DNA of 62,160 bases, filler included, from Vannella sp. (lineage: Eukaryota): assembly GCA_023345925.1 (NCBI GenBank). It is 6 parts of 6 records of this genome, joined end to end, with 100 filler letters (N's around TTAATTAATTAA, not from the genome) between each part and the next. Parts side by side here need not be neighbours in the genome. Positions count along the whole stretch, not along the records: positions 48,358 to 55,986 come from JAJQQN010000599.1; 5 more parts are not named here. One strand, given 5' to 3'. The position numbers and the translations under genes are program-made. This document shows, in pieces, positions 48,358 through 55,986 of the stretch (positions are counted from its first letter, which is position 1; every line of letters starts with the position of its first letter). Below the pieces are notes generated by a model. That model saw only the letters and a list, made by a program, of their open reading frames with translations. It did no database searches and was not told where the DNA came from.

Positions 48358-48587
48358 CTCTCCCTAATCTTACCCTTCACTCGTTGAGTTTCTCTTGGCA
48401 AAAAGGTTCCACATCTTGCCACCTACCAGAGATGACAAGCGCACACTTACATGCCTGGTGGAGATTCACCTTTTTCGCGATATAGAATCAGACTTGTCCC
48501 CACTGAAACTGCCTTGGCGACCCTCAAAGAGTTGGTTGGTAGAAGAGTATTTACGAGAAGAGAGAACCAGATGCATTGCCAGTCCCA

Positions 48588-51006
48588 TTATTCGACGGCA
48601 TCAGATTTGTGCGGCAAATTGGAGGATTTCTCTTGTGCCATAACCATCACAATCTTCCGGAGGACAAGAAGAGCACAAACGAGCATTGGGCCGATAAGGA
48701 CGCCTTGAATTCCAAAGAAATAAAGTCCTCCAACAACACTGAGGCCAGTGACATAATGGTGGCTGGATTGAATCTCAGAGTAGACTAGCGGATCGACCCA
48801 CCAACTTGCCATCAAGTGAAGGAAGAACAATGAAAAGGCGGAAAAGGGTCGATTCCAAACCAACCAGAGCTCCAAGACTCCGGGTAAGCAATCAAAATAG
48901 GTAGGAAGGAGTGGCACCAAGGCCATGAGAGCCGAAAGAAGTGTTGGAAGGTACACCATGTGGCATCCGAACACCGTATATGTACTCCAGCACCACATCC
49001 CGTGAAATAGCGCCAATTTAAAGGCAATCTTGAAAACTTGAGAGACACTTTCCTTGATTAAGTCTCCGGCTTGATCTCTAAAGGACTCTTCTGGGAAGAA
49101 AAAGAGAACCCAAGACATCGGCTTGTACGTTTCATTATCAGATGTGCCAAGTAAGTAGAAGAGAGATGTCAGGAAGAGGAGAAGTGAGAAGAGGAAGTTA
49201 AAGAGTCCCCATCCCTTCATCACCACCCACCACACCAATCGGAAATTTAGAAGGAGTTGAGACCAAATAGTCTCTACCACCATTCTCACGTTGGAGCCGT
49301 AAGCTTTCCAGAACGACTCAGCACTGCCGGATTGTACTAAATCAGAGATAATTCCAAAGCTGATTGGGACTTCCCACTCCAGTTTGTTGAAAGATCCAGA
49401 CGTGTCGCTCCAGAACTCTCCAATCTTCTCCTGGAGGTCAACAAGATCCATTTCATTTCCAGTAATGACTTTGAGCCGAGCCTGGATCCATTCTCGGCCA
49501 TGCTGCATTACCTTTGAAGTAGTTGTCTCGTAGAGCTCTTCAAAATCAGCCGTACTATGGAAATACTCTTTCAGATAGTCAATATGTGGTACAATAACAG
49601 TCCTCATCTCCCAGATATCTTCTGCAAGTTGAGCATTCTCTTTGTACAATTGTACAGAAAAGAAAATGACCACAACAACCACACAAGCAATCAGTAGACC
49701 AATAATAACGATGGAGTAGAGGATGTTGAGCTGATTGCGAACCCAACGGATCAGGAACTGGTCTCCTGTCTCAAAGCAATCCCAACAGAACCTCATAGGA
49801 GGAGGGACAATGTGCTGTTGGAACTTCTTGTAAGAGAGGATTCTCTGTAAAGCATATTTGAGCCCCAAGACGAACCAATAACAGGTTGCAGTAACCAGCA
49901 AGAACGCAACAACTTGTACAATATTGGCGACGTACATCACACAGAAGATGGCCAAGATAGTAATAAGCTCTGTCGAGAAAGAGTGCTTTGAAGTCTTCTT
50001 CACGGCCTTCTCCTTGGATGGGGAGCGTTCGCGATTACCAATCTTCTGATAGAGACCTAATAGTGCACACGCTACTATTCCAGTGAATATGAGGACTGTC
50101 AGCCAGTTTTTCATGATGTAAGGATACGCAGTGAGCGCAAAAAAGACTAAAATAATCCATTTCACAGCTAAACAGAACTTTGCATTGGCCATTCGGTTCA
50201 CCTCTACGTAGACAGTCCCCAAATAGACCAATCCTACGGCCAAAATGACGAAGATACTGATGTGCGCCGTATTCTCCGCCACTTTAACTCCAGAGATAAT
50301 GAGATTCTCCACAATTAGGAGGATTTTCTGCATTCCCTAGTGAGAATAGAGTAGAATAGAAGCGCGCAGTCCCTTACAGAGAAGAGGAGCTTCCCTATCC
50401 GGACGAATGTTTCGACGATGGCAGGCAATCCGGCGAGGTCAATGAGGATATTGACAGCCAGGAGGCATCCGACAGTGACAGTTCGAGTGGTAGTCTATGA
50501 GGAGTATACTATGAGAGACTTTCAGACGCTGTAGGAAGTCGTACCTTCGTGAGGAAGCGATAAAGCTCTCCAGGGAGGCTCAGCAAGAGGAATAAGAGTC
50601 CTGCGAAGAGGGGTATGCCTCGATTAGAGACCTCTTCTAACCAGCGATCACTTTTTGACACCCATTTGGTCTTGATAGGATGCAGGAGAGCGCCACAAAG
50701 CACCGCCCAGAACAACGGTTCGATAAACTCTTGAAAGACGAACCAAAGAGCGATAGCAGAGGCTGTGAGGAACAGAAGGATTGCGTTGGCAGCAGAGTAA
50801 TAGAATGCTTGCGTTAGACGGTCCTCCTGTAGCTTCTCAACGATAGAACTGCGCAGTTTTCCCGTCAGTGCGCTCAAACTCTCGCTCTCTCTCTCCAGAC
50901 GCTTCGCCTCCGCCCCACCTTCACCGCCCACTCTTCCTCCGTTCGCAAACTCTACTGAAGGCAACGCAGGCCCAGGGACACTGCTCTTCGACCGACCCCG
51001 TTGCAT
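48588..51006 (-). CDS. TMEM245: TMEM245 (AI-2E-family-related multi-pass membrane protein)
   Basis: EFIEPLFWAVLCGALLHPIK, FKLALFHG and HHYVTGLSVVGGLYFFGIQGVLIGPM. Confidence 0.85.
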
Positions 51007-51056
51007 GAAAGAGTCCCGCACGAGCAAATGAGAGCAGAACGGACAGAACAGCACCT

Positions 51057-52361
51057 TTACTTGGCATTCCAGTCATCTTCGGACATGCGTAGGGCTATTC
51101 GGCTCCTCAAAAGGCCAGTAATAGCGGAGGATAGAGTGGCACTGGAGCGGCATTGGCTCAGTTCCGAGGAGATTTGGTTGAGCCACGCGCTGCTGATGTC
51201 TAAGTTGAACACGTTATCAAGATCGCTGATGTCCTGGGAGTTGCGGAGGACGTGGCCGATCGCTTTGAGCTTGAGCTCGCTGAGAAGTCGACATAATTCG
51301 ACTCCCACGCCTACTACGAGGGCTTCAGAGTATGAAAAGTTCGATAACGCATCACTGAGTATCATTACTAGACGGGTAAAGAAGTTTCGGTCCGTAAAGA
51401 ACTGCGAGAATTGAGAATACACTTCTTGATGGGCTAAAATAGGCAAATACTTATAGCCCCACAGCATGGCAAGCTTCAAAGCCATCTCAGCTAGTCTATT
51501 AGCAGAAGAGCTTCGCATTCGAATGCGAGTAGCACAGTTTGTGATGATGTTCTTAGCCAAACGCACGCGCGACTTTTCGTCTATTTCTTGTGAGACGATG
51601 AAAGAGAACCTGGCAAACTCTGGCAGTTGCTTTACTGTAGCCTCAACCAACGCTTCTAATCCAAAGTACTTTCCTACCACAGTTCTTTTCCCACAATCGA
51701 CTGCGTCGCAGATAAGTTCCTTCGTTCGATGCCGGAATCGGAAATCATCCGAAAAGCAGACCGGACAGCATTCCATCTGGTAGTTATGACGGTCACTAAC
51801 TACTCCATACACTCCACGTAAGCTCGTGAAGTTGGCTTCCAGAATGGAGCTGCGAACCGCTTGGATCTGCTCGGGACTGGCCGAGTCGATTTTGTTCAAT
51901 ATAAAGATCAAGGAGAGGTCTGGGAACAGCTCCTCACATAGACTTCGTTCAAAAGGTTGAAAGCGTGAATGAGACATATCCAAAACGTACCAAACGACGT
52001 GGAGGTGGTCAGAAATGTCCGCGGAGGACCGAAGGTTCTCGAGAAACGACCGTGTGTCCTCCAGGAACTCGATGTGGTTGCCATGCTCCAATCCTTTTGT
52101 GTCATAGAGTACCACTGGCTTATCTTCAGACGCAAAGCGCTCCATATGACGACTAACAGGCTCCCCTGAACCAGTGGGAGCAAACGTGCGCCCCAGAAGC
52201 GCGTTCACTAAGGAGGACTTTCCCGCTCCCGTTTTACCAATGATCAAGATGTTGGGCCGCTTCAGCTTGCCTGTGAGCGTCGTGAAGGCTGTGTTGAGCT
52301 GCAACACGACGTCCTTCAACTCCTTCTGGTCCAACGAGGCGGGAGGCGCCTCTGTCTCCAT
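51057..52361 (-). CDS. Era/MMR_HSR1-like GTPase with Cys-rich insertion and helical C-terminus
   Basis: G1 GKTGAGKSS, G3 DTKG, G4 NKID, and CCPVC...CDAVDC. Confidence 0.8.
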   Translation of the reverse strand: METEAPPASLDQKELKDVVLQLNTAFTTLTGKLKRPNILIIGKTGAGKSSLVNALLGRTFAPTGSGEPVSRHMERFASEDKPVVLYDTKGLEHGNHIEFLEDTRSFLENLRSSADISDHLHVVWYVLDMSHSRFQPFERSLCEELFPDLSLIFILNKIDSASPEQIQAVRSSILEANFTSLRGVYGVVSDRHNYQMECCPVCFSDDFRFRHRTKELICDAVDCGKRTVVGKYFGLEALVEATVKQLPEFARFSFIVSQEIDEKSRVRLAKNIITNCATRIRMRSSSANRLAEMALKLAMLWGYKYLPILAHQEVYSQFSQFFTDRNFFTRLVMILSDALSNFSYSEALVVGVGVELCRLLSELKLKAIGHVLRNSQDISDLDNVFNLDISSAWLNQISSELSQCRSSATLSSAITGLLRSRIALRMSEDDWNAK

Positions 52362-52591
52362 CCCGCCCCCAAATGCTCTCTTTCTATCAAGCCAGAGAAG
52401 TATGATGACGATGCTTCCCGCCTTTCTCTTCGAATTCTCCCGGATGATTCGTCCTGGTCACGTGTTGCCTTCTCTTCCTCCTTGTGTTGCCCTTTGGGGC
52501 TGGGGGTGAAGTAGATGCTTCATTGGGTGGATGCTGCGAACTGCAAGAGTTGTGAGAACGCACAGTGGTGGCAGACTCTGGGGGAGGGAGT

Positions 52592-53028
52592 TCACGCTTG
52601 GAGAATGGCGGTGAGGAGGGGAACGGGTGTTCCTAGCCACAAGGCGCGCTGGGTGTGGTTGATAAAGAGCTCGCTTCTGTTGGAGTTGGGGTGGATGAGA
52701 ATGGACAGGTCGCCGTGGTTCATACACAGCCATGGGATCACTTTCCTGCTAGAACGTGAACCACCGCGGAAAGGACAAGGCGGGAGCGCACTCACGCGAA
52801 CTGACTCTCAGTGATCATATGTGCCTCCCACATCCCAACAGGATGTGGGCCAATGGGGTCCCGCTGAGGAGGAAACATCCGCAAGGAAGGAAACGAAGCC
52901 TTCAAACTGTCTCGGAGGCGCACTGCTTGCGCCTCTGACTCTGTCTCCTTCTCAAAGTAAACATGGATGTCATAATGAGTGAAGTACTCGTTCATGGGGG
53001 TGTACGCCCCCTGAATGACCTCCTCCAT
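52592..53028 (-). CDS. DOPA 4,5-dioxygenase family protein (2 exons)
   Basis: HYDIHVYF, PIGPHPVGMWE, IPWLCMNHGDLSILIHPN and HTQRALWLGTPVPL. Confidence 0.85.
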
Positions 53029-53187
53029 GGTGAAGGGGAAGAACAAATGAAGCGGACACGCTTCATTTCCACATTCTAGTGGGCAAGGAGGTCTTCCTTG
53101 AACCTCCAAAAGAGTCAGATCCTGAAGGGAAGGTCTCTTCTTCTCGGTGAGTCACCCAAACAAGGAAAAGTGACATTGATAACCGTC

Positions 53188-53260
53188 TCCCGGGGTCTAT
53201 TTGGATCAAAATCCACTGCCTTACGGTCTTCAGTGAACTCTTCATGGTAAACCCTCGGGG
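53188..53260 (-). promoter_or_regulatory. SECIS element (type II) in the GPx 3' UTR
   Basis: Minus strand reads GGGUUUA-CC-AUGAA-GAGUUCACUG-AAGA-CC(GUAA)GG-CAGUGGAUUU-UGAU-CCAAA-UAGACCC: helix I, UGAN/NGAN quartet, 10-bp helix II, apical AA and mini-stem. Confidence 0.9.
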
Positions 53261-53287
53261 GAAGGTCCTGTGAGAGGAGCAAACTCG

Positions 53288-54707
53288 CTATTTGGCATCA
53301 GAATCTTCAGGGCTCAAGGCATCTCCATCGAGGAGGGCATTAATACTCCTTCGTAGACCCAAAGGGTTTCTTGAAGATCCCCAGCGGCCCTGGGGAATGC
53401 CTTGCTGATCCACAAGAAACTAAATTGCAAGTGAGAAGAGGACTTCAGTGGGGAAGGCAATTGGGCTGGCTGCTAACCTTGGTAAAGTTCCATTTGATAC
53501 TCGGGCTGAGCGTCCCTTTGACAGAATGTTTAAGGAACTTCCACAGTGGATGAGCGTCAGGTCCGTTCACTCTTACTTTGGCAAAAAGAGGAAACTCGGC
53601 GCCATATTCACTCGTAGCGAATTCCTTAATCTCTGCCTCTGTACCAGGCTCCTGGCGTCCGAATTGGTTGCAGGGGAAAGCTAACACCGTGAAGCCGAGA
53701 GAAGCAAACTCTTGGTAGAGCTCTTGCATCTGACGATAGTTCACGGCGGTCTTTCCTCACGCTGTTGCCACATTGACCACCAAACATACATTTCCTGCAT
53801 ATTTGGAGAGGTCCACTTCGTTCCCGTCAATATCTCTGCAGTTGTAGTCGAATAAGGAAGATGGCACATCTGGGCCGAGGCTCTCTTCCTCTTCTATCCC
53901 AATTCCTGCATCCACCAAGACACTCATCCAACTCTCCTGCTCTGCAGCAACATCACAAGCGAAGGTGAATGACTTGGCTGCCGAGAAGATGGTAAAACAG
54001 AAGCTCCCCTTCTTTGCTCGAGCGCCAGTCTCTTCTCTGATGCTAACACCATCTGCCAACTCAATCACACGCTTAGGAGAAGGGTCGAGGTTGCTCAGAA
54101 AGTAGTAAAGCTTCCCTTCGTCCTGCTTGACAAGGAGATAACGGCGGTTCCAGAAGACCTGACCGCTGGAATGTACCCATCCTGCTTTTGTCACTCCACA
54201 GTCGGACAACAGCTCTGCTACTGATGGACCCTTATCTTTGACTGTTCTGTGCAAAGGATCGTGTTCCTACAACACTTTGAGACTGCGAAGGGACCTCAAG
54301 AAGGAGGAACGAACTGGGAATCGGTAAAAGAGGGACATGTCCTTGAAGTCGTGGCCATAAGTCACGTGGTTGAAGATGCCGTTCTTCAGCATCTGTTGGC
54401 CGAGTGTAACTGCGCCTTCCCTTGTGGTGGAGAAGCCATGGGTGATCATCCAAGAGACCGCCTCACTCCCTGCAAGGAGAGCCAAAGTGAGTCATCCTGT
54501 TCCATCTCAAGAGAAGCTAACACACCAAGAAACACAGATCGATACTTGCGCAGGTTGTGCGAACGATCTTTGATGGCGACTCCGTTCTCTCCTCGCATGC
54601 ATTGTCCCAGATCCTCCCACTACCACACAACATCCATAAGACACCTATCTCCCTATCCCACTCACCACACGCACCACTTTGTGGTCCTGCTCCCTCGTAC
54701 AAGCCAT
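53288..54707 (-). CDS. DEP-PH-glutathione peroxidase (GPx4-like) selenoprotein, 5 exons, about 403 aa, with Sec encoded by TGA at 53757-53759
   Basis: Exons 54666-54707, 54526-54619, 54315-54469, 53478-54266 and 53288-53419 join in frame. DEP: GVAIKDRSHNLRKYRSVFLGSEAVSWM...HDFKDMSLFYRF. PH: KAGWV...WNRRYLL...EQESW. GPx: VNVATA-U-GKT, FPCNQFGRQEPG, IKWNFTKFLVD. Confidence 0.9.
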
Positions 54708-54834
54708 AAAGGGGACGAACCACCACCAACACCCCCAGAAAAGAAAAGAATGGGAAAACTCATTTAATTGATGCCACATTCGGAAGGAGAATTGGCGGAG
54801 AAGATTCATTTCACTTTGGGCTTGAGGGAGGGAC

Positions 54835-55744
54835 ATGGTCAAGTCCCTGGCGATTTACGAGTCCGAATTTAAGTCTGTTGTGCGGCAGGTAGAGAGAGCG
54901 GTAGATGAGATACCGTTAGCTGCGTCTGCAGGTGGGTCTGAGTGGTGATGGGAGGGAAAGAGGCTAACGGAGGGGTAGAACGGCGCAAGGAACTCGCAAA
55001 ACAAGCCCAGGATGCCCTGGAAGAAGCTGACGAGGTCCTTAAAGAGACGAGTATTGCAAGTGGCTTCACAAAGGAGGATTGGACTGGCCGTATCAACGAA
55101 CTCGAGGTGGAACTGAACCAATGGCGCAAACAGCTACGTACAGTACGCTTCCTACCAGTATTGTAACAACAGAACCCTCATGGTAACCTCTGAGTAGGCT
55201 ACTACCAAGGTCACGTACGATTCAGAGTACAGCGAGTTAACTGCAGGAGGAAGTCTCCTTCGGGAGGCTGTTACTGCGGATGATCATCGCTTACGGTAAG
55301 GCTTAGGGCCATGCTGTGTAAACAGAAGCTCCCCTTCTTTACTGACAGGCTTGGAAGGATGGACCACGCGACGCAAGTGATGAGCCAGGCCTCCGGGCAT
55401 GTGGTTCAGATGAATCGAATCGCTCAGGACACCATTGAGATGGCTGCAGACACAATGGTGATGATAGACGATCAAGGGAATCAAATCCATGCTGGGCGCG
55501 ATCGGGTAAGCGCTTCTCAGAGGAGTTTTTGGCTTCCAGGGCCTGACAAAAGTCGATCCAGCTGAGAGACATGAATCAGTCTCTCAACCGGGCACAGAAG
55601 ACAATGCGTAAGATCGGTCGCACGCTCATGACAAACAAGATCTTCTTGGCTCTCGGAGTGATCGCACTTATTGTGATTATCGGCCTTCTTCTTTTCATCA
55701 AATTCGGGACTGGCCTTTTCTCTTCCAGCTCTTCCAGCAACTAA
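54835..55744 (+). CDS. VTI1: Qb-SNARE, VTI1-like, multi-exon
   Basis: Helical N-terminal domain (IYESEF), a SNARE motif (RIAQDTIEMAADTMVMIDDQGNQI...SLNRAQKTMRKIGRTLMTNK) and a C-terminal TM helix. Confidence 0.75.
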
Positions 55745-55986
55745 ATCTCTTCTACAAAACTCTTACCATGTGCTAAACCAGAAGTAGCTTTCCTCTTCTC
55801 TTCAAACAAGGCCTGGTGAGATCCCACCTGCGCAACTGGACTTAGATGAGTCGTCGTATGTTTAAGGGTTCTCAACTCTGTAGAATGCGCGATCTGCTAC
55901 CAGGCTCACAAAAGAGAGAAAACATTCCCTCCTCCTCCCTCCCAAATAGGAAATACTCCTTAGTCCATTTTAGGATTTTTTGCGGC

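Follow-up and report, generated by a model that had tools for sequence, protein, structure and literature searches.

A very probable selenoprotein fusion of DEP, PH and glutathione peroxidase domains in Vannella sp., and its mis-annotated relatives in amoebae, corals and sponges

Does a TGA codon within a glutathione peroxidase (GPx) reading frame of Vannella sp. end translation, or is it read as selenocysteine (Sec) in a protein that also carries DEP and PH domains? We analyzed a stretch of 62,160 nucleotides, referred to as the window, which consists of six pieces joined by N spacers. The DEP-PH-GPx gene comprises five exons on the minus strand, inside a 7.6-kb piece (48358-55986). In the order of transcription, its features are as follows.

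54675..54707, minus strand: exon 1, 11 codons, with Cys3; its N-terminus agrees with the homologues P0005, P0007, P0128 and P0132; with the alternative donor it extends to 54666
54620..54674, minus strand: intron 1, 55 nt, GT-AG, phase 0; alternatively 46 nt, from 54665
54526..54619, minus strand: exon 2, N-terminal helix and basic hairpin of DEP (K28, R30, R35)
54470..54525, minus strand: intron 2, 56 nt, GT-AG, phase 1
54315..54469, minus strand: exon 3, DEP core (Pfam PF00610, E 2e-15)
54267..54314, minus strand: intron 3, 48 nt, GT-AG, phase 0, with an in-frame TAG at its end
53478..54266, minus strand: exon 4, conserved DEP-PH linker with Cys117, PH (54191-53910), acidic linker and most of GPx (from 53858)
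53757..53759, minus strand: TGA, in frame at the GPx catalytic position, residue 264, predicted selenocysteine
53420..53477, minus strand: intron 4, 58 nt, GT-AG, phase 0, directly after the KWNF motif
53288..53419, minus strand: exon 5, C-terminal part of GPx with the TAG stop; P0129 and L001 are colinear here
53193..53254, minus strand: type II SECIS-like hairpin with helix I, AUGA/UGAU core, helix II, AA bulge and apical mini-helix

The first-pass annotation of this DNA had joined the exons through introns of 46, 56, 48 and 58 nt into a frame of about 403 amino acids. All four introns of that model are GT-AG, and the frame has 403 codons with a single TGA; the part that did not stand is intron 1, which is probably 55 nt long, leaving 400 residues. 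The donor at 54674, 9 nt upstream of that of the 46-nt version, drops a three-residue insertion seen relative to the homologues and makes residue 12 the first Trp, which six of ten homologue N-termini also show (it is at 13 in three, and one has none). Both donors look usable, though this comparison of sequences makes the 55-nt form the probable one, with a predicted product of 400 amino acids, U264 and about 44.6 kDa. Intron 3 must be spliced because of the in-frame TAG at its end. Pfam finds DEP in exon 3 (2e-15) and both PH (2.6e-8) and GSHPx (4.9e-43) in exon 4, which upholds the proposal of a single DEP-PH-GPx frame. PH and GPx are encoded in the same exon, in a single frame running through the TGA, so that the fusion of these two domains is independent of the intron model. 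The homologues P0129, P0166 and P0224 are full length in a single frame, and single-frame homologues (P0129, P0224 and L001, described below) support the existence of one mRNA in relatives. By eye, gene callers ran on into or out of intron-like sequence in P0181, P0008 and P0033, which suggests that introns 3 and 4 may lie at equal places in relatives.

A gene of the DOPA 4,5-dioxygenase family (52792-53151, minus strand; Pfam E 8e-13) has an ATG near 53028, about 165 nt after the SECIS-like hairpin. On the plus strand, a divergent gene (54835-55744) starts 127 nt from the GPx start; by eye it is Vti1-type SNARE-like with a C-terminal membrane helix, and its three exon pieces have no Pfam match. 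Minus-strand segments of the same piece, 48588-50336 and 51057-52457, hold an AI-2E family transporter domain and a dynamin-like GTPase. The other pieces carry Med23, kinases and a RhoGEF, which marks the window as eukaryotic; neither a tRNA gene nor rRNA was found within it.

As first reported, the TGA sits exactly at the GPx catalytic position (residue 264, 53759-53757). A DNA contig of run X3 has the same TGA and differs over 328 nt by one synonymous change; this run and the best-matching run come from the same study, and the contig is therefore no independent confirmation of the codon. All four runs compared with the gene consist of DNA contigs that cover it patchily, with no RNA run among the matches listed, and the small share of run X4 gives no indication of habitat. 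A homologous sequence, L001, is 62% identical over 352 amino acids and has TGA at the same codon, with a frame that continues after it. It contains no introns and is thus probably a transcript.

We gathered at least 73 DEP-PH-GPx records from three protein searches and cluster look-ups and aligned them with the window protein and L001, excluding those that had only DEP, only GPx or tandem DEP. Of the 75 aligned rows, 62 end right before the catalytic residue, four have W there, two have TGA, one has Cys, five skip the site and one is a shorter fragment, all counts being inflated by near-duplicate coral rows. The correspondence between record end and TGA is directly visible in two of the 75 rows, and we infer it for the remaining ones. 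The five rows that skip the site are coral gene models, and the four with W probably reflect a TGA read under a TGA=W code; W also occupies the catalytic site in 56 of 110 stand-alone GPx matches. Cys is aligned with residue 264 in P0166, from Phalansterium, and in 45 of the same 110. An exhaustive profile search of 50%-identity clusters gave a similar picture: 39 representatives spanning DEP and PH were picked by eye from the best 150 matches, and 37 of them end at the catalytic motif (33 by pattern, four variants by eye). The conservation of TGA and frame in L001, the break at the same codon across distant lineages and the SECIS-like element argue for the proposed reading of this UGA as selenocysteine, as judged from sequence. 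We consider it very probable that the gene encodes a DEP-PH-GPx selenoprotein fusion.

The SECIS-like hairpin lies 33 to 42 nt past the stop codon, helix I starting 33 nt after the TAG. Its parts are AUGA at 53245, helix II with 11 of 11 pairs including the closing A-U, AA after 11 nt, an apical mini-helix of two pairs, UGAU, and helix I of seven pairs. A loose SECIS pattern matched 62 times in 6 Mb of Markov sequence, i.e., 0.003 per 260 nt, and a strict pattern, defined after the element had been seen, had no match there. Across the whole window the loose pattern has three matches, of which the element at 53245 is the best. The two weaker ones are at 51826 on the plus strand and 299 on the minus strand, with about one expected by chance at the size of the window. 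The folding z of the hairpin is only -2.0, 11 of 200 shuffles being equally stable, and Rfam SECIS models gave no match to it at E<=10. With a one-sequence covariance model made from the L001 SECIS, the window element ranks second of five in the window (E 1.2), this model being too weak. The 3' element of L001 itself matches Rfam SECIS_1 with 32.1 bits (E 3.3e-5), below the gathering score of 35. The two elements were misaligned by MAFFT and were compared in register by script: between window and L001, a small sample of two sequences, helix II shows four double and two single pair-keeping changes and one broken pair. The comparison with L001 is stronger support for a SECIS than the statistics from the window alone. 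Pattern, fold and covariation with L001 thus agree with the type II SECIS that had been placed about 30 nt after the stop.

The sequences give good support to the view that DEP-PH-GPx proteins form a widespread, mis-annotated family. Named members include the amoebae Arcella intermedia, whose record ends at the catalytic site, and Phalansterium solitarium, which has Cys and is full length; the stony corals Montipora, Porites, Stylophora, Pocillopora and Desmophyllum; and the sponge Geodia barretti. No named bilaterian was among the fused matches listed by the word-based searches. A tree was built from 61 of the 75 rows, without the short ones: the named corals and the sponge fall together within a 30-row clade (100/100); the clade of the window protein contains no named member and is distant from Arcella and Phalansterium. 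The prediction that annotation would truncate such proteins at the UGA holds for public coral and sponge records, which end there or skip the catalytic site. Truncated Montipora records are labelled PIKfyve-like, those of Geodia DEPTOR, and P0289, from a coral-type cluster, P-Rex1-like; coral records are also labelled glutathione peroxidase, and Geodia records PHGPx. With reef-coral and sponge models cut at the UGA and named PIKfyve, DEPTOR or P-Rex1, studies of oxidative stress would miss or misread the protein. The Atlas, which holds only clusters of at least 50 and says nothing on novelty, has no cluster with all three families; its nearest clusters for the N-terminal part are pleckstrins (0.79), which serves as a lead only.

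Other domain combinations were seen in passing. P0178, P0180, P0182 and P0429 have a DEP-DEP-GPx arrangement without PH, and they, too, stop immediately ahead of the catalytic residue (three of them were run through Pfam). P0408 begins as TPR-Mob1-DEP-PH-GPx and P0241 as globin-DEP-PH-GPx (globin E 4e-5), each being a single record and possibly a gene-calling artefact. A globin joined to a selenium peroxidase, as in P0241, would be worth a look.

What kind of peroxidase is it? The catalytic tetrad is intact (U264, Q299, W353 and N354), and helix alpha-2 of the window protein (EIKEFATS) has no resolving Cys, both in line with the first reading. A resolving Cys is absent from 11 of 12 fused members, the exception being the Cys-form member, where it lies at the start of helix alpha-2. 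It is present in the tobacco, Kalanchoe, Bordetella and beetle controls; the Cys scored in the human control lies further along, outside the helix. Judged from the one Cys-form sequence, Sec and the resolving Cys may trade off. Tetrameric GPx enzymes have a longer oligomerisation loop. The loop before IKWNF counts 10 residues here versus 12 in human and fish GPX4, and the window GPx is likely of the monomer type, devoid of the oligomerisation loop. Among the basic residues of GPX4, K48, K118, K121, K127, K135 and K140 are kept and K125 is not; the K48 position is Leu in four of seven full-length fused members. A model of P0129, which is 58% identical to the window protein (pLDDT 87.7, pTM 0.65), has Schistosoma PHGPx, poplar GPx5 and human GPX4 as its best fold matches. 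Tetrad, short loop and fold match, i.e., sequence and model, support assignment to a GPX4-like type without resolving Cys. The protein departs from the single domain of about 170 to 200 residues of the GPX4/PHGPx type, having 400 residues with DEP and PH.

The DEP domain scores 56.9 bits (Pfam cut-off, 32.7), and its best-scoring relatives are those of P-Rex1, P-Rex2 and DEPTOR. In its basic hairpin, K/R occupies position 28 in 44 of 59 rows, position 30 in 57 of 59 and position 35 in 57 of 60. Upstream, a Cys occurs within the first eight residues in 38 of 53 complete N-termini, and 13 of the 53, mostly coral-type, start with Met-Cys. An N-terminal Met-Cys is a possible acylation site or oxygen-dependent N-degron. 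The signature of PH domains that bind 3-phosphoinositides is K-Xn-(K/R)-X-R. At the corresponding positions, taken from alignments with solved PH domains, the window protein has S127, N134 and R136, so that only the last Arg is present, and the loop is two residues shorter than in TAPP1 or Akt. Because the PH signature is incomplete and the basic hairpin of DEP is conserved, DEP appears to be the likelier targeting module. A coral DEP-PH part with 30 residues of GPx was modelled confidently as a unit (pLDDT 89.6, pTM 0.78); no solved structure spans DEP and PH in the arrangement of the family (best TMq, 0.34).

DEP hairpins and the basic residues of GPX4 bind membranes. With some confidence, we favor a monomeric GPX4-type enzyme whose UGA would be recoded via the SECIS and which, docked by DEP on acidic membranes or membrane proteins, would reduce lipid hydroperoxides; every step past the sequence anatomy is one that we infer from GPX4 and DEP biology. 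Recoding by the SECIS would yield a protein of about 45 kDa, and its failure either a 29-kDa DEP-PH piece or mRNA decay, the last exon junction being 279 nt past the UGA. The basic hairpin of this P-Rex1/DEPTOR-type DEP would set the location of the enzyme, on targets that would be acidic membranes or membrane proteins, perhaps assisted by an acylated N-terminal Cys and a weak contact of PH with lipid. The selenol would then reduce the lipid peroxide and, with no resolving Cys, would be regenerated as in GPX4, by glutathione or a different thiol.

Yeast Gpx3/Orp1 relays oxidation to Yap1, and the fusion could similarly be a peroxide sensor, although we regard this as rather unlikely. DEP-PH would bind a signalling partner, and the selenol would oxidise protein thiols, its own Cys3/Cys117 or those of the partner, without scavenging lipid peroxides. 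The nature of DEP and PH as signalling modules fits such a relay, as do the N-terminal Cys (38 of 53), the linker Cys equivalent to Cys117, found in 45 of 70 rows, and the class IV glutaredoxins, which, in the available part of PMC13621322, join DEP to a thiol-transfer domain. However, the linker Cys is missing from the sponge-type and Arcella-type clades, and the GPx domain keeps the surface residues and fold of GPX4. The first-pass annotation had instead envisaged an enzyme drawn by signalling to phagosomes or the leading edge; in such a version, a PH domain with high affinity for PIP3 or PI(3,4)P2 would recruit it. TAPP1, Akt, DAPP1 and GRP1 do have the closest PH domains among solved structures, and of 72 rows, 57 have K/R at the beta-1 position and 37 retain the beta-2 Arg. 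Set against this are Ser and Asn in place of two of the three signature residues in the window PH, its short loop, the presence of all three basic residues in only 2 of 72 members, and the lack of the signature Arg in coral and sponge members. Recruitment by a phosphoinositide-specific PH is weakened by these findings, and we hold it to be improbable.

Two further readings concern the UGA itself. If selenium supply set the ratio between a stable 29-kDa DEP-PH adaptor, made by stopping at the UGA, and a read-through product with added enzyme, the codon would be a switch. The DEP-PH part with 30 GPx residues does model more confidently than the full-length homologue (pTM 0.78 versus 0.65), but truncation would leave the product with a disrupted GPx fold and the Cys-form member has no such switch. 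Moreover, a junction well downstream of a stop favors mRNA decay, and if this usual rule holds, the one 279 nt downstream would do so here; a selenium switch is thus, in our estimation, quite improbable. That there is no selenoprotein at all, the TGA being a true stop or a lesion or else being read as Cys or Trp throughout the organism, is very improbable. The window hairpin lacks an Rfam match, as this reading would have it, but the frame is conserved past the TGA, L001 has a SECIS, the break recurs at the same codon across distant lineages, and Table S1 of PMC8614756 prints a coral member with U. Genome-wide reassignment of TGA was rejected as unlikely: 13 long ORFs of the window contain 92 TGG, 105 TGY and zero TGA in 6,972 codons, an absence that is partly by construction, as the ORFs were defined without stops. 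A DEP-docked, Sec-containing lipid hydroperoxide reductase is our preferred reading. GPX4-type enzymes are generally regarded as small and untargeted; a conserved GPX4 form with its own DEP-PH would allow a test of whether the repair of lipid peroxides is directed to particular membranes or receptors.

The shared DEP-linker-PH part suggests one origin of the fusion before the split of amoebae and animals, with an unrooted tree and with transfer as a possibility. Among 67 GPx domains placed in a quick tree, the eight fused ones fall into three groups, and the starred branches force no more than one origin; the coral fused members are among animal-type GPx4 and the clade of the window protein lies outside, the deep forks being open or unstarred. 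Holding seven fused GPx domains together cost 30 log units with a p-AU of 0.046, a borderline rejection in a test that was run after the tree had been seen and after removal of four rows, of which one was fused but partial and three were long or aberrant. More speculatively, a pre-animal DEP-PH-GPx(Sec) family, present from amoebae to sponges and corals, may have provided signal-recruited protection against lipid peroxidation, the stand-alone GPX4 of animals being its descendant after loss of DEP-PH; we view this scenario as rather doubtful. In Table S1 of PMC8614756, in its available part, AqueGPx04 from Amphimedon begins inside the PH domain, and by eye this row is a fused form. The MleiGPx04A row of the same table, from Mnemiopsis, starts by eye with a PH-like tail, and if this is true, the family reaches Ctenophora. 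The available part of that paper proposes that this GPx lineage acquired Sec early in animals, a proposal on which protist Sec forms, tied by DEP-PH to the animal forms, would bear.

Has the architecture been described before? The first-pass annotation knew of no such description, and none turned up in the literature searched; the Pfam trio is nevertheless present on public coral records, and a coral protein with U stands in a supplement. The accessible part of PMC8614756 (2021) gives, in Table S1, the full Pocillopora protein with U as PdamGPx04A (XM_027200604.1), which by eye matches P0160 and P0217; the terms DEP, pleckstrin, PH domain, fusion and fused are all absent from its main text. 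Thus, the architecture is catalogued, by automated annotation and one supplement, but unremarked in the searchable literature, outside which lie subscription journals and bioRxiv supplements. The accessible text of PMC9925728 does not contain pleckstrin, PH domain, fusion or dishevelled, and its supplements no DEP or Pfam accession; that of PMC3473315 lacks pleckstrin, fusion and fused. The algal selenoprotein fusions listed in the part of PMC7539508 at hand include none with DEP or PH, and the available part of PMC3753652 was uninformative. PMC11459619, in the part available, treats the thioredoxin reductase of Acanthamoeba as a selenoprotein, and Sec use in Amoebozoa is therefore already in print.

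Among known systems, PdamGPx04A belongs to the family described here, being a full DEP-PH-GPx with U that is filed as a plain GPx04. Human GPX4 (PDB 6hn3, 2obi) and the Schistosoma mansoni GPx (PDB 2wgr) share with the window protein the U-Q-W-N tetrad, the short loop before KWNF and the absence of a resolving Cys. Identity in the fold match is about 50%, and most basic surface residues are likewise shared; the window protein differs by 230 extra N-terminal residues with DEP and PH. P-Rex1, P-Rex2 and DEPTOR provide the best DEP scores, whereas the family lacks their GEF, PDZ or second PH domains, and pleckstrin has the order PH-DEP-PH in contrast to DEP-PH-GPx. The nearest analogue is the class IV glutaredoxins, with the order GRX-DEP-DUF547, uncharacterised proteins for which membrane targeting via DEP has been proposed (PMC13621322, available part). 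Like the family, they fuse a thioredoxin-fold redox domain to DEP; unlike it, they have a glutaredoxin rather than a GPx, another domain order and DUF547 in place of PH, with no selenocysteine mentioned in the accessible part of that source. Pfam found neither GRX nor DUF547 in the exons of the window gene or in the full-length homologues, which instead combine DEP and PH with a GPX4-like peroxidase.
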